Assembly: GCF_004339805.1 (NCBI RefSeq)
Contig: NZ_SLUI01000007.1
Span: 57,061-81,060, forward strand
Source of the DNA: Anaerospora hongkongensis
GTDB taxonomy: Bacteria > Bacillota > Negativicutes > Sporomusales > DSM-15969
Length of the DNA stretch: 24,000 nucleotides
Direction: 5' to 3'
A program made the position numbers and the translations under genes. Under the pieces are notes generated by a model. It was not told the DNA's origin, searched no databases, and worked only from the letters and a program-made list of their open reading frames with translations. Every line of letters begins with the position of its first letter. Within the stretch, counting starts at the first letter, position 1. Positions 10,678-19,640 of this stretch are shown piece by piece.

Positions 10678-10707
10678 TAGGGAGAGTGGTAGTGCTGATT
10701 TTATAAT

Positions 10708-10740
10708 AGAAACCCTAGCCATGTGGCTAGGGTTTCTATT
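10708..10740 (+). terminator. stem-loop terminator after the hypothetical gene
   Basis: AGAAACCCTAGCC pairs with GGCTAGGGTTTCT in a near-perfect palindrome. The T-tail (TCTATT) is weak. Confidence 0.55.
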
Positions 10741-10983
10741 AGTACGTGTAATTGATTAAGCCTATATGAGGCTTGTATTAATTGAAAGGATATTGTAATA
10801 TAAATACGTCGAAACATACTATGTTTACAGGAGATGGCTACCCTGTACTGATGATGACAGGCTTATTATCAATCAAAAATCTTATTAAGGTTCTTGGTGA
10901 GGGAGCGTGGTGCTATATCAATATTAATTTCTTTGTTCACTCATTAAACCATTTTTCGCTCTACTTTAGTTTTTTAGCCATCT

Positions 10984-11036
10984 CGCCTTATAGGCCAAGC
11001 CTACTGATGAGTCCGTGTAAGTCGGACGAAAAGGGT
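10984..11036 (+). ncRNA. candidate type III hammerhead self-cleaving ribozyme
   Basis: Read 5' to 3': CCUU (10986-10989, stem III 5' strand), A10990 (H17, predicted cleavage after it), UAGGC-CAA-GCCUA (10991-11003, stem I hairpin), CUGAUGA (11004-11010), GUCCG-UGUAAGU-CGGAC (11011-11027, stem II with the G10.1-C11.1 pair), GAA (11028-11030) and AAGG (11031-11034, stem III 3' strand with the A15.1-U16.1 pair). Every invariant core position matches. Confidence 0.65.
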
Positions 11037-11068
11037 AAAAGACATCCGATGCTGGATGTCTTTTTTAT
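11037..11068 (+). terminator. rho-independent terminator immediately 3' of the hammerhead motif
   Basis: AAAAGACATCC (11037-11047), loop GATGCT, GGATGTCTTTT (11054-11064), with the T-run continuing to 11066. Confidence 0.75.
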
Positions 11069-11229
11069 TATATCAATCATTACCTTTAGCGTATGATTTT
11101 CCTCTATGCTTCTCGACGTAACAACACAGGAAGATGGCACTTTTTAGCGAAACATAAAGATATTGGTATATATCTTTTAGAGATGAATTTGCTTATCTGA
11201 TGTTAATTTGCATTCGGAGGGTGACTTTT

Positions 11230-14200
11230 TTGAAATCTAACTTTTCTTTTTTAGAAGGACGATGGCCGCTTCTTGCTTCTATTGGGATGATGGCTGAACG
11301 ATATATCCATACCGACTCAAATTCCTGCTTTATCAAGCTGGGGTTATTTGCCGAGTCTATGGTACGGTTGATCTTTACATTAGATCAGATCGAAGAACCG
11401 CAGGTCGATAATACGCATGCCAACCGGATTAGAATTCTCAAAAATGAAGGACTTCTTCCGAAAGATATTGATGATATTCTCTATGTGCTCAGACAGACGC
11501 GCAATAAAGCGGCCCATGATGGCTACGAATCAACTGAACAGGCCATGCTCTTAGTTCAGTTTGCCTATAAGCTTGGCGGCTGGTTCATGCAGACCTATGG
11601 AGACTGGAATTATGAGCCAGTAGCTTTTGTAAAACCTCATGCTATTGCGAATGACCTTGCTCTCAGTTCTGACAGCAAGCAGCAAGAAGAGCGCATCAAA
11701 GAACTCACCACGCAGATCAAGCAAGATGTTGCTGCTCTGCAGCCTATACCGCTTGCTGAACGACGAAAACAAAGCATTTCGTCAGCAGAAAAAATCAATC
11801 TTTCCGAAAAAGAAACCCGTTATCTCATCGACGAACAGCTCAGGCAAGTTGGCTGGGAAGCCGATTCCCTTCATATTCGCTACTCTAAGGGCATAAGACC
11901 ACAACGCGGCAAAAATCTGGCTATCGCTGAATGGCCGACCGATTCAATGGTAGGCGGTAGAGGTTTTGTCGACTATGCGCTATTTGTTGGAACTCAATTG
12001 GTTGGTGTTGTTGAGGCCAAGCGTCATTTGACAGACGTCCCAGCCGTGATTGATTATCAATGCAAAGAGTATGCCCAAAAGATAAAAGCCGAGCATGCCG
12101 GGTATCGCATCCATCAATGGGGCGACTATCAGGTCCCGTTTCTCTTTGCCACCAATGGACGCAAGTATTTAAAACAGCTGGAAACAAAATCGGGTATTTG
12201 GTTTTTGGATGCCCGTAAACCCACTAATCTTGCTAAAGCGCTGCAAGGCTGGCCAAGTCCGCAGGGCTTGCTTGAACTCTTGGCACAGGATATAGATAAA
12301 GCCAATCAGGTATTGGCCAATACCAGCTATGATCTGTTGAGCGATAAGGATGGCTTGAACTTACGGGATTATCAAATAAAAGCCATTCAGTCGGCTGAGC
12401 AAGCCGTAGCCGAAGGTAAGCAGACTGTGTTATTGTCAATGGCCACCGGGACAGGGAAAACCCGGACGATTTTAGGTCTGATCTATCGCTTAATCAAAAC
12501 TAGCCGTTTTAAACGAGTGCTATTTCTGGTTGATCGCACCGCGTTAGGGGAACAGGCTCAGGATGTCTTTAAGGAAGTCAAATTGGAAGACTTAATGACC
12601 CTAGATGAAATTTATAATATTAAAGGGTTGGAAGATAAGGAGATTGACAAAGAAACCAAAATCCACGTCGCCACAGTTCAGAGTCTTGTCAAAAGAATCC
12701 TGTATGCTGATGGTGAAAGCATGCCCGCTGTTACTGACTATGATTTGATTGTGATTGATGAAGCTCACCGGGGCTACATCCTGGACAAAGAAATGGGCGA
12801 AGAGGAACTGTTGTATCGGAATCAAGAGGATTATGTCAGTAAATACCGGACAGTCATTGAATATTTTGATGCTGTAAAAATAGCGCTTACCGCAACTCCG
12901 GCCCTCCATACCACAGAAATTTTCGGCACTCCTGTTTTTAACTATACCTATCGTGAAGCCGTCATTGAAGGCTATTTGGTTGATCATGATGCCCCCCATA
13001 CCCTGAAAACCAAGCTGGCCATGGAAGGCATTCGTTATTGCAAAGGTGATATTGTTGCCTTATATGATCCGGTTACTGGAGAAATTACCAACAGTCATGA
13101 ACTGGAAGACGAACTGAATTTTGATATTGAAAGTTTTAACCGGAAAGTTATTACCGAATCATTTAATAAAACGGTGTTAGAGGAAATTGCCAAATATATC
13201 AACCCGGACGGTCAGGGCAAAACTTTAATTTTTGCCGTGGATGATGCTCATGCCGATCTGATTGTCAAACTTCTGAAAGTAATCTATCAGGAATATGGCG
13301 TAGATCGGGATGCCATTATGAAAATCACCGGTTCGGTGGCTGGCGGCAACAAGAAGAAAGTACTGGAAGCCATTAAAAAGTTTAAAAATGAGAAATATCC
13401 CAATCTTGTTGTTACCGTTGACTTGCTGACAACTGGAATTGACGTTCCTGAAATATCCACCCTGGTGTTTATGCGCCGGGTAAAGTCAAGAATTCTGTTT
13501 GAACAGATGTTAGGCCGGGCAACCCGCCTATGTTCCGATATTGATAAGACACACTTTGAAATCTTTGACCCGGTAGGTGTGTACGAATCCTTAGAACCGT
13601 TAAGTACCATGAAGCCGGTAGTGGCCAATAAAGGTGCTACCTTTGCCGATCTGATCAACGGGCTGGAAGTGCTGGAAACCGAAGCCCAAAAGAAAAATCA
13701 GCTTGACCTGATTATCGCTAAGCTGCAGCGAGCCAAACGAAAAGTCAACAGCCAGCTGCTGGAACATTTTATTGACTTATCAGGCGGGCAAAATCCAGCC
13801 CAATTTATTGAAACCCTGCAAACGCTGACCATCGAGAAGGCTCAAGACCATATCCTGGAGCATAAACGCCTGTTCGAACTTCTGAATGAAGGTGGCTATC
13901 ATCCGGGAAGAGCGACAGTTGTATCCTTTAAGGAAGACGAACTGCTCTATCATACCAGAGGCTATGGCAATGCCCAAAAACCGCAAGACTATTTGGAAGA
14001 ATTCAAACGTTTTGTTGAAGACAATAAAGATAAAATTGCTGCGTTGAATATTGTCTGCACCAGACCCAAAGAGCTTACACGCGAGACTTTAAAAAGTCTA
14101 AAACTGGAGCTTGACCGTAATCGATTTACTGAGGTTCAACTCAATTCAGCCTGGAGAGAGATCCGGAATGAAGAGATTACGGCTGATATTATTACCTTTA

Positions 14201-14487
14201 TTCGTCGGCTAACGCTGGGCTCACCCTTGATTAGCCACGAACAGCGAATCAAAAATGCTGTGAATAAGCTTAAGCAGAATCATCGCTTTAGTAAAATGGA
14301 GCTGGACTGGCTGGGACGGATTGAAAAGCATCTTTTGCATGAAAGCATTCTGGCGGTCGACACCTTTGAAACCGGCGCATTCAAATCAAAGGGCGGGTAC
14401 AAAGTTATCAATAAAGTTTTTAGCAATAAATTGGAAGAAATTATCGCAGAACTTAATGATTATCTATATGACGATTGGAGCGCATAA
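11230..14487 (+). CDS. hsdR: type I restriction endonuclease R subunit (HsdR) with an N-terminal DUF4145-like domain and an EcoEI-R-type C-terminal region
   Basis: Walker A MATGTGKT, DEAH box VIDEAHRG, helicase motif VI-like QMLGRATR and an HSDR_N-type region (ETRYLIDEQLRQVGW) are present. The N-terminal ~130 aa (FSFLEGRWP...RNKAAHD) resemble DUF4145. The likely start is TTG 11230 (MKSNFSFLE), 8 nt after the RBS GGAGGG. The track start at 11200 has no RBS. Confidence 0.9.
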   Translation: MKSNFSFLEGRWPLLASIGMMAERYIHTDSNSCFIKLGLFAESMVRLIFTLDQIEEPQVDNTHANRIRILKNEGLLPKDIDDILYVLRQTRNKAAHDGYESTEQAMLLVQFAYKLGGWFMQTYGDWNYEPVAFVKPHAIANDLALSSDSKQQEERIKELTTQIKQDVAALQPIPLAERRKQSISSAEKINLSEKETRYLIDEQLRQVGWEADSLHIRYSKGIRPQRGKNLAIAEWPTDSMVGGRGFVDYALFVGTQLVGVVEAKRHLTDVPAVIDYQCKEYAQKIKAEHAGYRIHQWGDYQVPFLFATNGRKYLKQLETKSGIWFLDARKPTNLAKALQGWPSPQGLLELLAQDIDKANQVLANTSYDLLSDKDGLNLRDYQIKAIQSAEQAVAEGKQTVLLSMATGTGKTRTILGLIYRLIKTSRFKRVLFLVDRTALGEQAQDVFKEVKLEDLMTLDEIYNIKGLEDKEIDKETKIHVATVQSLVKRILYADGESMPAVTDYDLIVIDEAHRGYILDKEMGEEELLYRNQEDYVSKYRTVIEYFDAVKIALTATPALHTTEIFGTPVFNYTYREAVIEGYLVDHDAPHTLKTKLAMEGIRYCKGDIVALYDPVTGEITNSHELEDELNFDIESFNRKVITESFNKTVLEEIAKYINPDGQGKTLIFAVDDAHADLIVKLLKVIYQEYGVDRDAIMKITGSVAGGNKKKVLEAIKKFKNEKYPNLVVTVDLLTTGIDVPEISTLVFMRRVKSRILFEQMLGRATRLCSDIDKTHFEIFDPVGVYESLEPLSTMKPVVANKGATFADLINGLEVLETEAQKKNQLDLIIAKLQRAKRKVNSQLLEHFIDLSGGQNPAQFIETLQTLTIEKAQDHILEHKRLFELLNEGGYHPGRATVVSFKEDELLYHTRGYGNAQKPQDYLEEFKRFVEDNKDKIAALNIVCTRPKELTRETLKSLKLELDRNRFTEVQLNSAWREIRNEEITADIITFIRRLTLGSPLISHEQRIKNAVNKLKQNHRFSKMELDWLGRIEKHLLHESILAVDTFETGAFKSKGGYKVINKVFSNKLEEIIAELNDYLYDDWSA

Positions 14488-14490
14488 CGA

Positions 14491-15909
14491 GTGACAAATC
14501 AAGAAATCGTAGCCAAGCTGTGGAACTTATGCAACGTCCTGCGAGATGATGGCATCACCTATCATCAGTACGTGACGGAGCTTACTTATATTCTTTTTCT
14601 AAAAATGGCTAAAGAGACCGATACCGACAGTCAAATTCCTGCCGAGTACCGCTGGGATAAGTTGGCAGGACAACAAGGAACAGACCTAAAGAAATTCTAT
14701 AACAGGCTGCTGAATGATTTAGGAGAAAATAGTACCGGCAGAGTCCGGGAGATTTATTCAGGAGCCCGCTCGAATATTGAAGAGCCGAAGAATCTGGAAA
14801 AGATCATTAAATCCATTGATGATCTGGACTGGTATTCGGCGAAAGAAGAGGGGCTTGGCAACCTCTATGAGGGACTGTTAGAGAAAAACGCCAACGAAAA
14901 GAAATCCGGGGCAGGTCAGTATTTTACCCCGCGAGTCTTGATTGATATTATGGTAAAACTCATAAATCCCAAGGTGGGCGAAGTTTGCAATGATCCTGCC
15001 TGTGGCACATTTGGCTTTATGATTGCTGCTGACCGGTATATCAAAGATCAGACTGACGGCTTGCTGGATTTGCCGGTAGATGTGCAGCTATTCCAGAAAC
15101 AAAAGGCCTTCACTGGCTGCGAACTAGTACATGACACCCATCGTCTGGCGCTTATGAATGCCATGCTGCATGATATCGAAGGTGAAATCGTATTGGGAGA
15201 TACCTTGTCCAATGCAGGTAAGAGTATGAAAGGCTATGACGTCGTGCTCACCAATCCGCCGTTTGGCACCAAGAAAGGCGGCGAGCGCACGAACCGCGAC
15301 GATTTAGTCTATCCTAGTTCCAATAAGCAGTTAAACTTTCTCCAACATATTTATCGTTCGTTAAAGTCTGATAATCAGGCACGGGCGGCTGTGGTGCTGC
15401 CCGATAACGTACTGTTTGCTGACGGGGACGGAGCCAATATTCGTGAGGATCTGATGGATAAATGTAACCTGCATACTATCCTCAGATTACCTACCGGGAT
15501 TTTCTATGCCCAGGGAGTAAAGACCAATGTATTATTCTTTACCCGGGGTGCTACTGACAAAGGGAATACCAAGCAAGTCTGGGTCTATGACTTACGCACC
15601 AACATGCCCAGTTTTGGCAAGACCACGCCGCTTAAAGTGGAGCATTTTGCTGGATTCATGCAGGCCTATACTGCCCAAGATCGTTCCTCTGTTCAGGACG
15701 AACGCTGGAACCTGTTCACTAGGGAGCAGATCACCGAAAAGGGTAACAGCCTGGATGTTGGCCTAATTCGTGATGACAGTGTACTCGACTATGAAGACCT
15801 GCAGGACCCGATAGAAAGCGGCGAGGAAGTAGTTGCTCAATTGGAAGAAGCCGTTGACCTCATTCTGAGTGTCGTCAAAGAACTGAAAAGTCTGGGCGGT
15901 GGCAAGTAA
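14491..15909 (+). CDS. hsdM: type I R-M N6-adenine DNA methyltransferase subunit (HsdM)
   Basis: The HsdM_N-type N-terminus (KLWNLCNVLRDDG...YILFLKM), the SAM-binding region DPACGTFGF and the catalytic NPPFG are present. A GTG start lies 3 nt after the hsdR stop. Confidence 0.92.
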   Translation: MTNQEIVAKLWNLCNVLRDDGITYHQYVTELTYILFLKMAKETDTDSQIPAEYRWDKLAGQQGTDLKKFYNRLLNDLGENSTGRVREIYSGARSNIEEPKNLEKIIKSIDDLDWYSAKEEGLGNLYEGLLEKNANEKKSGAGQYFTPRVLIDIMVKLINPKVGEVCNDPACGTFGFMIAADRYIKDQTDGLLDLPVDVQLFQKQKAFTGCELVHDTHRLALMNAMLHDIEGEIVLGDTLSNAGKSMKGYDVVLTNPPFGTKKGGERTNRDDLVYPSSNKQLNFLQHIYRSLKSDNQARAAVVLPDNVLFADGDGANIREDLMDKCNLHTILRLPTGIFYAQGVKTNVLFFTRGATDKGNTKQVWVYDLRTNMPSFGKTTPLKVEHFAGFMQAYTAQDRSSVQDERWNLFTREQITEKGNSLDVGLIRDDSVLDYEDLQDPIESGEEVVAQLEEAVDLILSVVKELKSLGGGK

Positions 15910-17414
15910 TGGCGAAGAAAGAAAAGCTGTCGCTGTCGCCGGAGGAACTACTGGAGCAGGCTTTAGTTAAAGAAGAGGAGCAGCCTTATGCTGTGCCGGG
16001 TAATTGGGTGTGGACTAGGTTGGCAAGTTTGGTAAATATACACAGAGGCGTTTCATTCACAAAGAATGATGCAAAACTTAAAAAAGAAAATACTACTTGT
16101 CTAATTTTACGTGGTGGAAATATAAATGATGGAAAGCTAATATTCGATGATAATATTTATGTGAGTAAATCTTTAGTAAAAGAAGTACAGTTATTGAAAA
16201 AAAACGATATTATTATTGTTGCATCTACTGGCAGTACTAAAGTTATCGGAAAAGCGGCAATATCTGAAGAAAATTATGCAGATGTTGCATTTGGAGCTTT
16301 TATTACATTAGTAAGAGTTAAAGAGGATTTAAATCAAAAGTTTGTTGCCTTTTATTTTCTAAGTGAAATGTATAGAAGCTTAATTAGAAAATATGCAAAA
16401 GGTGTCAATATAAATAATATTAAGAACGAGCACATTTTATTTATGCCATTCGTTCTTCCCCCGCTCCCCGAACAGCAACGAATCGTTGCTGTAATCGAAT
16501 CTCTTTTCGAAAAGCTCAACCGCGCCAAAGAACTGGCCCAAACCGCTCTAGACTCCTTTGAAAACAGAAAATCTGCTATATTGCATAAAGCCTTCACCGG
16601 GGAACTGACCAGAAAGTGGCGTGAGGAGAATACTTCAGAGCATAATAAGTTATTGGAAGTTATATTGGAATTTTATACAAATTCTTCAAAACTTAAAGAT
16701 ATAAGTATAATTAAAGAGTTTCAGGGAAAGGCCTCTGTTCTTAAAAACATTAAAAATAGTAAATGGTATAAGTGTCATATAGGGGCAATTGGAATAGTTT
16801 GTAATGGCAGTACCCCATCCCGAAAAGTTTTAAAATACTGGGGAGGCGAGATTTCTTGGGTTAGTTCTGGGGAGGTCCGGAACAATGTTATAAACTATAC
16901 AAATGAAAAAATCACGACTGAGGGATATAATGCATCATCAGTAAGGATGTTGAATAAAGGTTCGATTCTTATTGCTATGATTGGAGAAGGTAAAACACGG
17001 GGGCAAACCGCGATATTAAATATTGATGCAACTATTAATCAAAATATCGCAGCTATAGATTTAAGTCACAAATGTGTGATTTCAAAATTTGTTTGGTATT
17101 GGTTGCAATATCAATATGAAAATAATCGTCAAGTAGGAAACGGCTCTGGCCCAAAAGCACTTAATTGTCATAAAATCCGAAATTTGGATTTTATTCTTCC
17201 CCCTCTTCTAGAACAACAAGAAATCGTCCGTATTCTCGATAACCTCCTGGAAAACGAGCAAAAAGCCAAAGATCTGTGTGATGTGATCGATAAAATTGAC
17301 CATATGAAAAAATCCATCCTAGCCCGTGCTTTCCGAGGCGAGCTGGGTACTAACAATCCTGCTGAAGAAAGCGCTCTAGGGTTGTTGAAAGAAGTGCTGA
17401 AGGCTAAGGCTTAA
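15909..17414 (+). CDS. hsdS: type I R-M specificity subunit (HsdS) with two target recognition domains
   Basis: The ATG overlaps the hsdM stop (TAATG). Two conserved helical repeats separate two variable TRDs: PPLPEQQRIVAVIESLFEKL...ILHKAFTGELT and PPLLEQQEIVRILDNLLENE...ILARAFRGELG. Confidence 0.92.
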   Translation: MAKKEKLSLSPEELLEQALVKEEEQPYAVPGNWVWTRLASLVNIHRGVSFTKNDAKLKKENTTCLILRGGNINDGKLIFDDNIYVSKSLVKEVQLLKKNDIIIVASTGSTKVIGKAAISEENYADVAFGAFITLVRVKEDLNQKFVAFYFLSEMYRSLIRKYAKGVNINNIKNEHILFMPFVLPPLPEQQRIVAVIESLFEKLNRAKELAQTALDSFENRKSAILHKAFTGELTRKWREENTSEHNKLLEVILEFYTNSSKLKDISIIKEFQGKASVLKNIKNSKWYKCHIGAIGIVCNGSTPSRKVLKYWGGEISWVSSGEVRNNVINYTNEKITTEGYNASSVRMLNKGSILIAMIGEGKTRGQTAILNIDATINQNIAAIDLSHKCVISKFVWYWLQYQYENNRQVGNGSGPKALNCHKIRNLDFILPPLLEQQEIVRILDNLLENEQKAKDLCDVIDKIDHMKKSILARAFRGELGTNNPAEESALGLLKEVLKAKA

Positions 17415-17465
17415 CCGTAAAAGGTATGTGGGGGATAATTTTAGGGAATTGGTAGAAGAGGATTG

Positions 17466-18350
17466 ATGCACATGTCAGGCAAATTAATTCGCTTATTCTT
17501 AACTGATGGTCAGCCCAATGGGTTGCGGACAGTTGAAATTTCCAATATGACCATTCATGGAACGATTTTTCCCCGGACGCAATTAGAGGGTTTTATGAAG
17601 CGGGAGGCGGCTAATAAACCGGGGGTGTATATGCTCATTGGTCAGGACGAGCAGGATCTGGAAACTATTGCTTTATACATTGGACAAGGCGACCCGGTGT
17701 TGCCACGGTTACGGGATCATGCCCGGAACAAGGAGTTTTGGACCGAGGCTATCGTTTTTTCTTCGAAAGATGATTATCTAACCAAAACCCAGGTTAAATA
17801 TCTGGAGGCAGACTTGTATGCCCTAGCGAAGGAAGCATATAGGGCCAAACTGGATAATACGCAAGCACCGACCAGGCCGAACATCTCGGAAGTGGATAAA
17901 GCCGAAGTCAATCAGTTCCTAGAGGCCATTAAACTGCTGCTATTGGCACTAGGCCGAGATATTTTAGAACCAAGGATCTTAACCGAAGCAAATACGGGCG
18001 TATCGGAAACCATATTTGAGTTGAAAAATAAGAATGCCTTTGCCCGTATGGCAGTTATCAATAATAAGTATGTGGTGCTCAAAGGCTCTACCGCTGTCCG
18101 CGAAAATCGGCGTTCTATAGCCCCGTTCCTGGTTAAACTTCGTCAAGATCTGGTGGATACTGGTATTATGGTTGAGACTGATGAAGAACTTTATACATTT
18201 ATGCAGGATGCCACCTTTAATAGCCCAAGTTACGCAGCAGCGGCAATCGTGGGCGGTGCTGCCAATGGGCGGAGATTATGGAAGTACAACGGTAAGGCAT
18301 TAAGAGAGTGGGATAATGAAATAGTAGATATCTGTGAAGATGACGATTAA
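17466..18350 (+). CDS. GIY-YIG nuclease-like protein with a C-terminal DUF4357-like domain, co-oriented fourth gene of the R-M operon
   Basis: GIY-YIG elements are present: GVYML, LYIGQG, RLRDH and YLEADL (Glu). The C-terminal FNSPSYAAAAIVGGAANGRRLWK matches my recollection of DUF4357. Start candidates are ATG 17466 or 17472, after the RBS GAAGAGGA. The gene begins ~50 nt after hsdS with no terminator between them. Confidence 0.8.
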   Translation: MHMSGKLIRLFLTDGQPNGLRTVEISNMTIHGTIFPRTQLEGFMKREAANKPGVYMLIGQDEQDLETIALYIGQGDPVLPRLRDHARNKEFWTEAIVFSSKDDYLTKTQVKYLEADLYALAKEAYRAKLDNTQAPTRPNISEVDKAEVNQFLEAIKLLLLALGRDILEPRILTEANTGVSETIFELKNKNAFARMAVINNKYVVLKGSTAVRENRRSIAPFLVKLRQDLVDTGIMVETDEELYTFMQDATFNSPSYAAAAIVGGAANGRRLWKYNGKALREWDNEIVDICEDDD

Positions 18351-18390
18351 CAAAAGCTCTAAAAATTTCTTAACAAAGGATTTATTATAA

Positions 18391-18440
18391 AAGAACGCCT
18401 AAAGTAAGCCAGTTCCGCTTACTTTAGGCGTTCTTTTCTT
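18391..18440. terminator. strong bidirectional terminator closing the R-M operon and the convergent XRE genes
   Basis: A 19-bp perfect stem: AAGAACGCCTAAAGTAAGC (18391-18409), loop CAGTTCC, GCTTACTTTAGGCGTTCTT (18417-18435). T-rich tracts lie on both sides. Confidence 0.85.
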
Positions 18441-18451
18441 TCAGCTATCCT

Positions 18452-18570
18452 TTAATCCATCTCTTCCCGCTTCCAAATCCCATGCTTATACAGCACAACC
18501 TCTCAATCAAGGCAATTTCTTTTTTATTTCCTCGGGCAGATTATACTTCTCATTATCCTCCCGAATGGCC
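18452..18570 (-). pseudogene. degenerate, frameshifted copy of the 3' (C-terminal tail) portion of the XRE gene at 18956..19285
   Basis: It aligns base-for-base with 18956-19075 at an offset of 504 bp, roughly 85-90% identical by eye. It would encode ..IREDNEKYNLPEEIKKEIALIE, then loses frame at a 1-nt deletion (GAGAGGTTGTG versus GAGGAGTTTGTG). It is not in frame with the adjacent 75-aa gene. Confidence 0.7.
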
Positions 18571-18573
18571 TAT

Positions 18574-18801
18574 TTACCTTCTTTTCGGATTATCAGATAA
18601 GCCAGCTAAATAATCTAATGACACATTAAAATACTCTGCTAAAGCCGTAGCCATATCAAGTGGAGGAAGTCGATCACCTTTCTCCCAATGGCTTACGGTT
18701 TGCTTTGTGACACTAAATTTTGCTCCTAATTGTTCAAGTGTTAAATTATTTTGTTGTCTCAGGTCTCTTAATCTTTTACAAAAAATTTCGTGTAAAAACA
18801 T
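18574..18801 (-). CDS. XRE-family helix-turn-helix transcriptional regulator (75 aa)
   Basis: An HTH_3 pattern is present (LTLEQLGAKFSVTKQTVSHWEKGDRLPPLDMATALAEYFNVSLDYL). An AAGGAG RBS lies 7 nt upstream of the ATG at 18801. Confidence 0.85.
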   Translation of the reverse strand: MFLHEIFCKRLRDLRQQNNLTLEQLGAKFSVTKQTVSHWEKGDRLPPLDMATALAEYFNVSLDYLAGLSDNPKRR

Positions 18802-18812
18802 TAGAATACTCC

Positions 18813-18841
18813 TTGACAGTCAACTGAAAGTTGACTAGAAT
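18813..18841 (+). promoter_or_regulatory. near-consensus sigma-A promoter P1 whose spacer is exactly operator O1
   Basis: TTGACA (18813-18818), a 17-nt spacer (18819-18835, GTCAACTGAAAGTTGAC), then TAGAAT (18836-18841). It points rightward, into the antisense of the 109-aa XRE gene. Confidence 0.55.
18819..18835. promoter_or_regulatory. 17-bp palindromic operator O1 (GTCAACT-N3-AGTTGAC)
   Basis: GTCAACTGAAAGTTGAC has perfect 7-bp inverted arms. Confidence 0.6.
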
Positions 18842-18856
18842 AAACATAGGCATTGA

Positions 18857-18873
18857 GTCAACTTTTAGTTGAC
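18857..18873. promoter_or_regulatory. 17-bp palindromic operator O2 (GTCAACT-N3-AGTTGAC)
   Basis: GTCAACTTTTAGTTGAC has the same arms as O1. The two centres are 38 bp apart. Confidence 0.6.
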
Positions 18874-18955
18874 AAACAAAAGGTTTATAAAGTAGGAAGA
18901 GGGTTGAACTAGAATATATAACGATGATTTATAAGAGCAAGTGACCTTATTCCGA

Positions 18956-19075
18956 TTACTCCATCTCTTCCCGTTTCCGAATCCCATGCTTATACAGCAC
19001 AAACTCCTCAATCAAAGCAATTTCCTTTTTGACTTCCTCGGGCAGGTTATATTTCTCATTATCTTCGCGAATGAC
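18956..19075. repeat. right-hand copy of the ~120-bp direct repeat (partner at 18452-18570)
   Basis: See the pseudogene entry. Similarity stops abruptly at ~18570/19075 and at the stop codon TTA (18452-18454 / 18956-18958). Confidence 0.75.
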
Positions 19076-19285
19076 TGGTACAGGTTTGGCTTCCGTGAAA
19101 AATTCAGCCAGAGAGATGTCCAGGGCCTGGCAGACTTTTTCCAGAGTTGTAACGTTAGGATTTTTTTTACCGATTTCAATATCCCGCAATGTAGCCTGGC
19201 CGATTCCGGCAAGCTGAGCGAGCTTGTTGGTTGAGTAATTCTTTTCTGTCCGCAACTGAATAATGCGTTTGGCAGTATTCATCAT
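18956..19285 (-). CDS. XRE-family helix-turn-helix transcriptional regulator (109 aa) with a charged C-terminal tail
   Basis: An HTH_3 pattern is present (YSTNKLAQLAGIGQATLRDIEIGKKNPNVTTLEKVCQALDISLAEFF). A GGAGG RBS lies 7 nt upstream of the ATG at 19285. A possible -10 TATAAT on the minus strand sits at 19319..19314. The + strand ORFs 18941..19234 and 19029..19217 are antisense shadows. Confidence 0.88.
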   Translation of the reverse strand: MMNTAKRIIQLRTEKNYSTNKLAQLAGIGQATLRDIEIGKKNPNVTTLEKVCQALDISLAEFFTEAKPVPVIREDNEKYNLPEEVKKEIALIEEFVLYKHGIRKREEME

Positions 19286-19355
19286 ATTATATCCTCCAAT
19301 TAACGCTAAAGCAATTATAGGTAAAAGGAATTCCAGATTAACTAACGCAAAAACA

Positions 19356-19384
19356 TTGACAACTTAAAGCATTTGCATTAGAAT
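19356..19384 (+). promoter_or_regulatory. near-consensus sigma-A promoter P2 for the AcnX-DcuC-DUF1847-PatB operon
   Basis: TTGACA (19356-19361), a 17-nt spacer, then TAGAAT (19379-19384). The hexamers and spacing are the same as P1. It lies ~250 nt upstream of the ATG at 19641. Confidence 0.6.
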
Positions 19385-19640
19385 GAAATGTATGAAAGGG
19401 GGAGTTGTTTTTTTTACCGAACGGAATCGTTCACAACAACCACATAAAGGAGTTGGTGAAGGCGTTGCAAAGAATCGGCAGCATTACTATGGGCGAATGC
19501 TGTTTATTTGTCATGCCCTGCATGCGTTGGCGCGCGTGCAGGAAGAGTGTGAGTTTCCAGAACAATCCATTTCCATTATAGCGCAACAATAAAAAAACGT
19601 AAACCTTTGTTAGGAAATCCCGGTAAGAGGAGGGATTAAT

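Follow-up and report, generated by a model that had tools for sequence, protein, structure and literature searches.

The purpose of hammerhead ribozymes in bacteria and phages has been a question since 2010-2011. Related designs exist outside the bacterial world, the retrozymes (PMC7229834) being eukaryotic non-coding retroelements with identical repeated hammerheads. In Tornado-type designs, an RNA flanked by ribozymes is left with 5'-OH and 2',3'-cyclic phosphate ends held in a stem, which are joined by RtcB or a tRNA ligase, and circular mRNAs with endless open reading frames (ORFs) give rise to long repeat proteins in E. coli. The Tornado and circular-mRNA systems are engineered ones, reportedly those of Litke and Jaffrey in 2019 and of Perriman and Ares in 1998.

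Arrays of several hammerheads have been described in prophages, where they flank genes or else small ORFs that lack conservation (Perreault et al. 2011, PMC3088659; reviewed in PMC6155905); circular products of these arrays were considered, looked for and undetected (Perreault et al. 2011, PMC3088659). The zeta viruses are viroid-like, RNA-only replicons of 324-789 nt, with no DNA form, in which each of the two polarities has its own ribozyme and endless ORF and the fold is rod-like (bioRxiv 10.64898/2026.09.16.752053). Moreover, in the DRT2 system rolling-circle reverse transcription produces a concatemeric cDNA with a nearly endless repeat ORF, Neo (PMC11100668, PMC12039810).

The window analysed here is a stretch of 24,000 nucleotides from Anaerospora hongkongensis (contig NZ_SLUI01000007.1), in which an initial annotation had described a type III hammerhead followed by a terminator, upstream of a type I restriction-modification (R-M) operon. 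Judged from its sequence, this motif belongs to a cassette with two hammerheads, in which it is the 3' ribozyme and so the downstream half of a predicted self-cutting pair. The unit, of ~260 nt, would run from its own promoter through a type II hammerhead, ~120 nt of intervening RNA and the type III hammerhead to an intrinsic terminator (Table 1). The type III assignment thus stood, while the type II partner, 135 nt upstream, and the promoter of the unit had been overlooked; the non-coding stretch, first put at ~490 bp, measures 552 nt (10678-11229). The cassette is currently annotated as 'hypothetical protein', and both its ribozymes lie under the Rfam cut-offs.

Table 1. Features of the cassette and its surroundings (window coordinates; cleavage sites and promoters are predictions).
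Feature	Position	Strand	Details
Small hairpin (TAAGCCTATATGAGGCTTG)	10757..10775	+	Terminator-like match; left edge of the block travelling with cassette and hsdR
Putative promoter	10773..10802	+	-35 TTGTAT 10773-10778; extended -10 TGTAATATA 10794-10802
Hammerhead 1, type II	10808..10858	+	Predicted cleavage between 10825 and 10826
Hammerhead 1, 5' parts			11.x GUC 10808-10810; GAA 10811-10813; stem III 10814-10824 (ACAU-ACU-AUGU); H17 = U10825
Hammerhead 1, 3' parts			Stem I 10826-10847 (UACAGG/CCUGUA, 10-nt loop); core CUGAUGA 10848-10854; extra U10855; 10.x GAC 10856-10858
Released RNA between the two predicted cuts	10826..10990	+	165 nt = 55 codons
5' arm of end-closing helix (GAGAUGGCUA)	10831..10840	+	Inverted repeat I7; overlaps loop I of hammerhead 1
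Second short helix arms	10847-10851 with 10966-10970	+	
Shine-Dalgarno-like GAGGGAG	10899..10906	+	Within released RNA
3' arm of end-closing helix (UAGCCAUCUC)	10975..10984	+	Inverted repeat I7; stops 6 nt before second cleavage site
Hammerhead 2, type III	10986..11034	+	Predicted cleavage between 10990 and 10991
Hammerhead 2, parts			Stem III CCUU/AAGG; H17 = A10990; stem I UAGGC-CAA-GCCUA; core CUGAUGA 11004-11010; stem II GUCCG-UGUAAGU-CGGAC; GAA 11028-11030
Intrinsic terminator ending the unit	11037..11070	+	12-bp hairpin 11037-11064, 4-nt loop, then U6
hsdR proximal promoter and 5' UTR	11123..11232	+	RBS GGAGGG; probable TTG start 11230; outside cassette

Read again directly from the window, the letters at 10986-11034 are identical to those first reported (CCTT, A10990, TAGGC-CAA-GCCTA, CTGATGA, GTCCG-TGTAAGT-CGGAC, GAA, AAGG). 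By this reading and by a descriptor demanding every core position and no stem shorter than 4 bp, they hold the complete type III core: C3-A9, G12-A14, the A15.1-U16.1 and G10.1-C11.1 pairs and an H17 other than G. The claimed topology of three helices is reproduced in the minimum-free-energy (MFE) fold of 10980-11070, which consists of the three-way junction plus the terminator. The earlier view that chance is unlikely is borne out by the same descriptor, which has its sole match in the window at this site and none in 3000 dinucleotide-preserving shuffles. The check for covariation in relatives, which the initial annotation had proposed, also came out in favour of the motif. In an alignment (A3) of seven distinct homologues, 93.3% of cells are paired, with double (compensatory) changes at 10 of the 15 pairs, figures subject to an ascertainment bias, since the members were partly picked by a descriptor that requires pairing. 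All three helices covary, none of 500 shuffles was equally good, and slid controls reached 26-57%. The covariation signal stems from distant relatives alone: both hammerheads are invariant within Anaerospora, and hammerhead 2 is 100% identical in L215/L216, L220, L222 and L223. A covariance model of hammerhead 2, built from these homologues and run over 0.9 Mb, recovered only the known copies of the cassette.

At the gathering threshold, Rfam gave no match in the window, and a sensitive mode was required. Applied to both strands of the whole 24 kb, it returned three matches with E<1, all within the 260-nt stretch of the cassette. The top one was Hammerhead_3 (RF00008), with 34.1 bits (E 6e-4) against a gathering cut-off of 48.5 bits; relatives reach 37-38 bits. 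The score stays below the cut-off because the aligner omits the non-consensus stem III and the non-GUC (UUA) cleavage triplet. Had the cmsearch cut-off, proposed earlier as a check, been followed, the motif would have been rejected; this criterion asks too much of a variant whose stem III is short and departs from the consensus. The cleavage triplets of both window hammerheads are suboptimal (UUA and GUU), and their open stems are short (4 bp in stem III, 3 bp in stem II).

Since both hammerheads fall under the gathering cut-offs and Phe_leader (RF01859) scores 33.6 bits at 10938-11068, a chance resemblance or a transcription attenuator, in either case without ribozyme function, has to be weighed. 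Such an explanation is extremely improbable: two full-core motifs, independent of each other, share a strand, the shuffles contain none, and covariation is seen in relatives. The attenuator candidate was rejected, as the sub-threshold Phe_leader alignment rests on the terminator and a U-rich tract, with large deletions, and no leader peptide stops before the terminator. On its sequence, the element at 10986-11034 is almost certainly a genuine hammerhead.

The upstream partner has all the core nucleotides and the helix layout of a type II hammerhead (closed stems I and III, open stem II), and it is the sole match of the type II descriptor in the window (0 of 2500 shuffles). Rfam Hammerhead_II (RF02276) gives it 27 bits (local E 5e-4), below the cut-off of 37, and homologous type II copies lie above that value, with 40.4 (L378), 38.8 (L344) and 37.2 bits (L345). 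The sequences of stems I and III differ among the members and pairing is kept in 9/9 of them; the extra nucleotide between A9 and G10.1, a U in the window, is a pyrimidine family-wide (9/9 members). On inspection by eye, a pseudoknot of loop I with the tail just 3' of stem II could have only four pairs in the window, two of them G·U (GGCU with GGCU), and five in L344, L345 and L378 (AGCCU or GGCCU with AGGCU). The distal segment 10975-10984 is another pairing partner of loop I. The active fold of this hammerhead is not the MFE one, its core being sequestered by a rival 9-bp hairpin.

Transcription of the unit would start near G10808. Both hexamer regions of the putative promoter are invariant, and the spacer (10783-10789) and the discriminator (10803-10807) differ among lineages; since a consensus promoter scan of the window made no call at 10773-10802, the promoter is one that we infer. 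At the other end, the terminator follows the hammerhead directly, as had been claimed, and the same order recurs in relatives (L322, L358, L435, L440 and L455); the conserved block stops at ~11077. Cleavage would part the upstream RNA from the terminator hairpin, as first suggested, and the RNA so detached is predicted to be a defined piece of 165 nt, cut at its upstream end by hammerhead 1. Conservation of the unit is high: compared with the homologous locus L218, 10808-11077 shows 2/270 differences (0.7%), both substitutions inside the released piece. The corresponding figures are 8/51 in the promoter spacer region, 9/143 plus indels in the 5' UTR and 254/1085 (~23%) at hsdR third positions, the cassette unit being ~30-fold better conserved than the third codon positions of the adjoining hsdR.

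The position of the cassette, ~195 nt upstream of the hsdR start as initially reported, is compatible with a leader that would regulate the type I R-M operon or, like the synthetic RiboJ insulator, shield hsdR from upstream transcription. Within Anaerospora the cassette travels with hsdR in three upstream contexts, homology with L218, L219 and L220 beginning at the small hairpin of Table 1, and similar copies of a promoter-like element (repeat D1) precede both the cassette and hsdR. A leader function is nevertheless very unlikely, since no cassette, hammerhead or intergenic similarity was found in 80 related hsdR operons of other genera (61-81% identity), and the cassette is also missing from the L221 (90% HsdR identity) and L224 (82%-identical) operons. 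Of the upstream stretch, L221 keeps 11123-11256 alone; hsdR is thus served by a promoter of its own, located past the terminator. Furthermore, homologous cassettes occur with no R-M genes nearby. With the cassette absent from 80 + 2 related operons and its family present in other contexts, the functional tie to the R-M operon implied by the initial annotation could not be upheld. In Klebsiella phages the cassettes occupy an accessory ('moron') slot between the lysis genes and the terminase, and the contexts of the family include a defence-island hotspot and a neighbour gene whose match to a TIR domain is weak and below threshold. The best reading is that prophages and defence islands carry the cassette as an accessory module that is autonomous and not an R-M regulator; here it sits on the leading edge of an island with type I R-M genes.

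Diverged relatives of the cassette came from the prophage of an isolate genome, from metagenomes and from temperate phages of Klebsiella, using search patterns with no length or ORF information in them. They bring the type II→III cassettes to 10 distinct ones from 5 lineages, with predicted released pieces of 162, 165, 225 or 249 nt. The 225-nt cassette is the version of the Klebsiella lysogens, and the Klebsiella phage ST13-OXA48phi12.5 (MK714353.1) has a cassette at ~19190-19560. An exact 28-mer of stem-loop II was not found in JGI metagenomes, blastn of the cassette against phages and plasmids and searches of the Klebsiella-type cassette against E. coli genomes gave no match, and a pattern with 15.2 other than C added no II→III cassette to the set; when viral contigs were searched with a generic stem II pattern, the matches listed were mostly type I phage hammerheads.

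In 10/10 cassettes and 5/5 lineages the length of this piece is divisible by three, a rule that had been seen on the window before the relatives were found. The comparison set comprised 115 distinct adjacent hammerhead pairs, these 10 and 105 others; lengths of the latter split 37/32/36 modulo three, with an open frame in 2/105 (Fisher p 7e-5 by sequence, 0.007 by lineage). All 10 type II→III fragments have a circularly stop-free frame, exactly one of the six circular frames in each member (shuffle probability 0.01-0.09 per lineage), and the junction codon is always a sense codon. The termini pair in all 10 cassettes; duplexes between the first and last 32 nt range from -18 to -40 kcal/mol (P<=0.008 in 9/9 members), an equivalent of the end-closing helix exists with different sequences in every relative, and the junction sits in a loop of ~10 nt in every circular MFE. 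A Shine-Dalgarno site with an in-frame AUG is present in four of the five lineages (L322, L378, L344/L345 and L358/L435/L440). The differences between close relatives show little third-position bias; the peptide sequence is therefore weakly constrained.

In the window, the stop-free frame has its codons counted from 10827 and closes on itself if the ends are joined, through a junction codon UAU (Tyr) with UA from the 3' end and U from the 5' end; the predicted joined sequence reads …CGCCUUA followed directly by UACAGGAG…. The minus-strand frames carry 1-10 stops. The end-closing helix appears in the MFE of both the full transcript and the circle, and the 32 nt at either end form a duplex of -20.1 kcal/mol, versus -10.6±2.8 for shuffles. 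No canonical in-frame start follows the Shine-Dalgarno-like site in the window lineage. The nearest start codons (GUG 10907 and GUG 10910) both lie outside the stop-free frame and open an ORF of 5-6 codons ending at UAA 10925-10927. A 104-aa ORF was rejected as a real protein, as it belongs to no Pfam or PHROG family and has no homologues besides its own alleles and one relative; HMMER against 1.8 billion representatives returned only P0034, that relative (48% identical, 63 aa) and a doubtful repeat protein.

The explanation that best accounts for these features is an excised, ligase-circularised mini-mRNA with an endless ORF. During synthesis of the ~260-nt RNA, hammerhead 1 would cut after U10825 and hammerhead 2 after A10990, with removal of the 5' triphosphate leader, 18 nt long if transcription starts at G10808, and of a tail of ~78 nt made up of ribozyme and terminator. 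The 165-nt product would bear a 5'-OH and a 2',3'-cyclic phosphate, its ends being kept adjacent, with short single-stranded overhangs, by the covarying helix 10831-10840/10975-10984. An RtcB-type RNA ligase would then close these ends into a circle, on which ribosomes would go round the single stop-free frame, 55 codons per turn, to make a repeat polypeptide. Self-ligation by a composite hammerhead was rejected after inspection by eye, as the released piece holds no GAA strand; a protein ligase would therefore be needed, and no ligase gene is linked to the cassette.

Alternatively, the hammerheads may only process a small mRNA or sRNA that stays linear. An ordinary small ORF would then start within the core of hammerhead 1, at its in-frame AUG(s), or else from the internal Shine-Dalgarno/AUG, and the hammerhead 2 cut, by removing the stop, would act as an off-switch through non-stop mRNA and tmRNA tagging. 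This corresponds to the processing role that Perreault et al. proposed for phage hammerhead arrays, in which no circular products were seen (PMC3088659). Gene-flanking multi-hammerhead arrays are common in phage contigs, all members of the family have in-frame AUG codons within the hammerhead 1 core, and no member has the stop of its linear ORF before the second cleavage site. A start at the in-frame AUG AUG of that core would by itself explain most of the stop-freeness, which leaves the multiple-of-three rule (p ~0.007 by lineage) as the main discriminator. Linear processing does not predict this rule, kept in all sequences and lineages while the other 105 pairs are uniform, nor does it predict the always-sense junction codon, the strong in-frame Shine-Dalgarno/AUG mid-way in an already open frame or the paired termini with covarying sequences in every lineage. 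It is considered rather unlikely.

A further possibility concerns only the Anaerospora copy, which might be an exapted or decaying derivative whose hammerheads still cut and whose RNA, having lost its translation, serves as a processed non-coding RNA. The starts outside the stop-free frame, the restriction of 104-aa ORF homologues to its own alleles and one 48%-identical relative, and the conservation of nearly all nucleotides of the unit, including features outside the ORF, would all suit it. The 165-nt length and the stop-free frame have been kept, however, a search of the window for targets to which the released RNA would be antisense gave only chance-level matches, and decay is hard to square with 0.7% divergence against ~23% at neighbouring synonymous sites. 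This alternative is clearly improbable, at a lower level than linear processing.

The circular mini-mRNA draws on the two motifs, the helix covariation, the conservation of the unit, the multiple-of-three length, the stop-free frame, the paired termini and, in relatives, the Shine-Dalgarno site with its AUG. Double excision is probable. Taken as a whole, the explanation by a ligase-closed mini-mRNA has about an even chance of being right, and for the family the same balance, neither for nor against, applies to a circle with endless translation; translation of the Anaerospora copy is doubtful. In a more tentative extension, judged less likely than not, the family would be a natural 'Tornado' of bacteria and temperate phages, in which type II and III hammerheads excise a mini-mRNA of 162-249 nt that RtcB circularises. 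Rolling-circle translation would yield a toxic, abortive-infection or phage-accessory effector, the RNA-level counterpart of DRT2 Neo, and the cassette may be a DNA-encoded relative or source of zeta-virus-like circles. The linear form would be a harmless non-stop message, so that ligation, for instance by stress-induced RtcB, would be the switch.

For one class of bacterial and phage hammerheads, the cassette family answers the question of what they are for in a way that is concrete, compact and open to testing, and its members in Klebsiella pneumoniae temperate phages make experiments straightforward. Should both the circle and its endless translation prove real, bacteria would have their first natural circular mRNA that is encoded in DNA and translated by rolling circle, a case joining self-cleaving ribozymes, RtcB RNA repair, 'endless ORF' effectors such as DRT2 Neo and the viroid-like zeta viruses.

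With the type III (RF00008) and type II (RF02276) hammerheads of Rfam (PMC3088659), the cassette shares the full core, the three-helix junction, the permuted topologies and the location in mobile DNA and, with the type II ones, the very short stem II. A loop I/3'-tail pseudoknot of the type II kind may also form. It departs from them in the sub-cut-off scores of the window copies, the extra pyrimidine between A9 and G10.1 of its type II member, the U·U at 10.1-11.1 of some relatives and the open stem III of 3-5 bp, abutting the terminator, of its type III member. The prophage multi-hammerheads (PMC3088659, PMC6155905) also place two different motifs near a short ORF of unknown function in a mobile context, whereas the cassette has a fixed II→III order, a piece of 162-249 nt that is both a multiple of three and stop-free, and paired termini, a pattern that the 105 other pairs compared do not share. 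Zeta viruses are likewise small, with type II or III hammerheads, base-paired folding, a multiple-of-three length and a stop-free ORF over the whole unit. The cassette departs from them in that ribozyme and endless ORF are confined to one polarity and that a DNA counterpart exists. It is encoded in the DNA of bacteria and phages, with both ribozymes on one strand, flanking the unit, a minus strand filled with stops and a bacterial Shine-Dalgarno.

The likeness to DRT2/Neo lies in the short, non-coding-looking unit, the ends juxtaposed by a stem, the nearly endless repeat ORF and the defence and phage contexts, including Klebsiella. The cassette differs in having no linked reverse transcriptase, no RT domain being found among the scanned ORFs of the window or the scanned neighbour ORFs of relatives, and its repeats would arise by translation of an RNA circle. 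Finally, retrozymes and Tornado constructs have in common with the cassette a DNA-encoded RNA flanked by self-cleaving ribozymes, with its ends held in a stem, but retrozymes are eukaryotic and Tornado is engineered, whereas the cassette is bacterial and natural. In the literature searched, no natural bacterial counterpart of Tornado or of the circular mRNAs was found; so far, the design proposed for the cassette is otherwise known only from free circular RNA replicons and from synthetic constructs.

The motif described in the initial annotation as a type III hammerhead (hammerhead 2) with a terminator behind it reads as claimed in the window, and the hammerhead junction together with the terminator is the minimum free energy (MFE) structure of 10980-11070. 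A chance origin is ruled out, since a full-motif descriptor matches this site alone and none of 3000 shuffles; the motif is, on sequence grounds, a genuine hammerhead. In Rfam's sensitive mode Hammerhead_3 aligned with the motif, but at 34.1 bits, under the cut-off of 48.5; the alignment took in stems I and II and the core, and dropped the non-consensus stem III and UUA triplet. No Rfam family matched anywhere in the window at gathering thresholds. In sensitive mode the whole window gave three matches with E<1, every one inside a single unit of about 260 nt, and two of these are hammerheads. A match to the enterobacterial Phe leader (10938-11068; 33.6 bits, cut-off 55) owes its score to the terminator and a U-rich tract and was judged spurious. 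Taken alone, hammerhead 2 is a further member of a known family.

Upstream of hammerhead 2, the sensitive scan also revealed a type II motif (hammerhead 1), matched by Hammerhead_II with 27 bits (cut-off 37); it is the sole match of a type II descriptor in the window, with none in 2500 shuffles. Both hammerheads are sub-threshold in Rfam, carry the triplets UUA and GUU, and have short open stems. Predicted folding shows a 9-bp hairpin competing with the active fold of hammerhead 1. An extra pyrimidine between A9 and G10.1 is present in all nine type II motifs of the family (window, L322, L344, L345, L358, L378, L435 and L440 among the loci compared), and this core insertion is conserved and no defect.

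Coordinates of the cassette and neighbouring features (window positions)
Feature	Position	Details
Defence-island hotspot	10678-19600	
Direct repeat, first copy	10786-10802	AAGGATATTGTAATATA
Hammerhead 1 (type II)	10808-10858	core CUGAUGA, one extra U (U10855), 10.x GAC; stem I UACAGG/CCUGUA; stem III ACAU-ACU-AUGU, H17 = U10825; 11.x GUC, then GAA
Hammerhead_II match	10807-10866	
Predicted released piece	10826-10990	165 nt; stop-free frame from 10827
Window end-pairing helix	10831-10840 with 10975-10984	plus 10847-10851 with 10966-10970
GUG ORF	GUG 10907, GUG 10910; UAA 10925-10927	5-6 codons (VVLYQY*)
Hammerhead 2 (type III)	10986-11034	+ strand; CCUU-A-UAGGC-CAA-GCCUA-CUGAUGA-GUCCG-UGUAAGU-CGGAC-GAA-AAGG
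Terminator	11037-11070	12-bp hairpin + U6
Stretch retained in L221	11123-11256	
Direct repeat, second copy	11156-11172	AAAGATATTGGTATATA
DUF4357 and two HTH genes	17463-19285	

Identical hammerheads occur in three more alleles of the region (L215/L216 = L218/L219, L220, L222/L223). Between the window and L218, the unit 10808-11077 differs at 2 of 270 positions, against 8 of 51 in the promoter spacer and discriminator, 9 of 143 (and indels besides) in the hsdR 5' UTR and 254 of 1085 hsdR third codon positions; the block conserved from promoter to terminator thus appears as one transcription unit. In the allele comparison the -35 TTGTAT and extended -10 TGTAATATA of the putative promoter are invariant beside a variable spacer, which suggests that the promoter is real, with an inferred start near G10808, the first base of hammerhead 1. 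Of a direct repeat, the first copy overlaps this extended -10 and the second is located some 60 nt before hsdR; the repeat may represent a promoter or operator type common to the cassette and hsdR. Two independent metagenome contigs with 95%-identical hsdR (L222, 1-300; L223, 1-290) start within the cassette, at window equivalents 10961 and 10975, where an assembly break may have occurred.

Within Anaerospora, the cassette stands beside hsdR in three upstream contexts; none of 80 related hsdR loci in other genera has it, nor do operons 90% (L221) and 82% (L224) identical to that of the window, L221 retaining 11123-11256 alone. The putative cassette is not a restriction-modification (R-M) feature. 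Immediately behind its DUF2939 gene, Anaerospora has a defence-island hotspot (window and L212-L219) whose systems differ by strain: type I R-M in the window, KAP NTPase and U49 peptidase in L212/L213, DISARM DrmE and NERD in L214, GAAD/GASH/DO-GTPase in L217, and a 1071-aa protein without assignment plus R-M in L218/L219. Downstream of the R-M operon lie a DUF4357 protein gene and two divergent HTH (Phage_CI_repr-like) genes, a tail also found behind the operon in L221 and L222.

A tandem-core pattern and a three-type descriptor detected a relative, L322, at a prophage edge of an isolate genome, with a type II hammerhead, about 110 nt, a type III hammerhead and a terminator in the same order as in the window. 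Patterns from common hammerhead 1 features later yielded L344 and L345 from metagenomes, and L378, L435, L440 and L358 (= L400) from viral contigs. The L440-type cassette (225 nt) is found in temperate phages of Klebsiella pneumoniae, between lysis genes and terminase (L455, MK714353.1 19190-19560; OK490410.1 and OK490415.1, 18718-19118; L491, MK448231.1), annotated as 'hypothetical protein' only; in the related phage ST101-KPC2phi6.1 this slot is occupied by an ordinary small gene, with the same terminator behind. Another diverged cassette of the Anaerospora type is probably indicated by the protein P0155 (63 aa), which shares 48% identity with the window's linear ORF. P0156 (459 aa), built of 41-aa tandem repeats and matching weakly over five stretches, is probably unrelated. 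Type II arrays with the same AGGC tail surround segments of 250-940 nt in viral loci (L350, L366, L368, L383, L415, L469 and others); segment lengths are uniform modulo 3 and open frames scarce (2/21), so that the ribozyme type serves another use in these arrays, probably the processing of operons.

Covariation in relatives, by which the initial annotation had proposed to judge the motif, was found in the hammerhead 2 helices: in an alignment of seven distinct sequences, 93.3% of cells are paired, with double changes in 10 of 15 pairs, as against 26-57% in slid controls and no equally good result in 500 shuffles, statistics which are somewhat optimistic because some members were recognised by a pairing-requiring descriptor. 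A covariance model of hammerhead 2 recovered the cassette copies alone in 0.9 Mb. In the 225-nt lineage (L344 2205-2240, L345, L435 2806-2840, L440, L455), U·U replaces the near-invariant G-C at 10.1-11.1 of the type III hammerhead; the sister copy L358/L400 keeps G-C there, and position 7 of its core is A (CUGAAGA). Stems I and III of hammerhead 1 differ in sequence and keep pairing in 9/9 members, three of which exceed the Rfam cut-off.

The two predicted cuts would free a piece with a length divisible by three and a frame free of stops; closed into a circle, it would therefore have an endless ORF. Both properties were noted on the window before any relative was known and the search patterns held no length or ORF information, which makes the relatives an out-of-sample test. 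In a survey of 115 distinct adjacent hammerhead pairs from all fetched loci, the ten type II→III pairs (162, 165, 225 and 249 nt) were all 0 mod 3 and all circularly stop-free; among the other 105, 37 were 0 mod 3 (split 37/32/36) and two had an open frame (Fisher p = 7e-5 by sequence, 0.007 for five lineages). Exactly 1/6 circular frames is stop-free in each II→III member, with a shuffle probability of 0.01-0.09 per lineage. Eight of nine members have UAU or UAC as junction codon, and a strong mid-piece Shine-Dalgarno site precedes an in-frame AUG in L322, L378, L344/L345 and L358/L435/L440. The window copy has no canonical in-frame start behind its Shine-Dalgarno-like site, the nearest GUG codons being out of the stop-free frame; the short ORF that they open may be a decoy, a coupling device or a sign of decay. 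Furthermore, the initial 32 nt of the piece pair with its final 32 nt in all members (-18 to -40 kcal/mol, P<=0.008), with unrelated sequences, and all predicted circular folds place the junction in a loop of some 10 nt that caps this helix. The peptides are weakly conserved and match no Pfam or PHROG family. A linear ORF from the in-frame AUG AUG in the hammerhead 1 core would account for most of the stop-freeness if translation begins there, leaving the length rule, junction codon, internal Shine-Dalgarno/AUG and paired termini as discriminators. As far as sequence comparison tells, the two hammerhead motifs flank a conserved piece with paired termini and a closed reading frame.

For the circular product, both hammerheads would cleave co-transcriptionally and leave a 5'-OH and a 2',3'-cyclic phosphate. 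Joining these ends would call for an RtcB-type ligase, since the released piece lacks the GAA strand for ribozyme self-ligation, and ribosomes would then read round the circle without terminating. The contexts, namely accessory slots of prophages, the defence-island hotspot and a neighbouring gene whose TIR-domain match is weak and sub-threshold, suggest that the role may be that of an accessory or defence-type effector. Engineered analogues exist in Tornado and circular mRNAs.

Hammerheads of types II and III have been described in bacteria, as have arrays of several hammerheads around small ORFs (PMC3088659, PMC6155905). Full-text literature searches, of incomplete coverage, so that an earlier description may exist, returned no hammerhead cassette with an endless ORF encoded in bacterial or phage DNA; within that literature, the cassette joins known elements in a design without description for cellular or phage DNA, and the motif is of more interest than first claimed. 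Zeta viruses share hammerheads, multiple-of-three length and endless ORFs with the cassette, but are RNA-only and ambisense (bioRxiv 10.64898/2026.09.16.752053). DRT2/Neo attains an endless ORF through reverse transcription (PMC11100668, PMC12039810).
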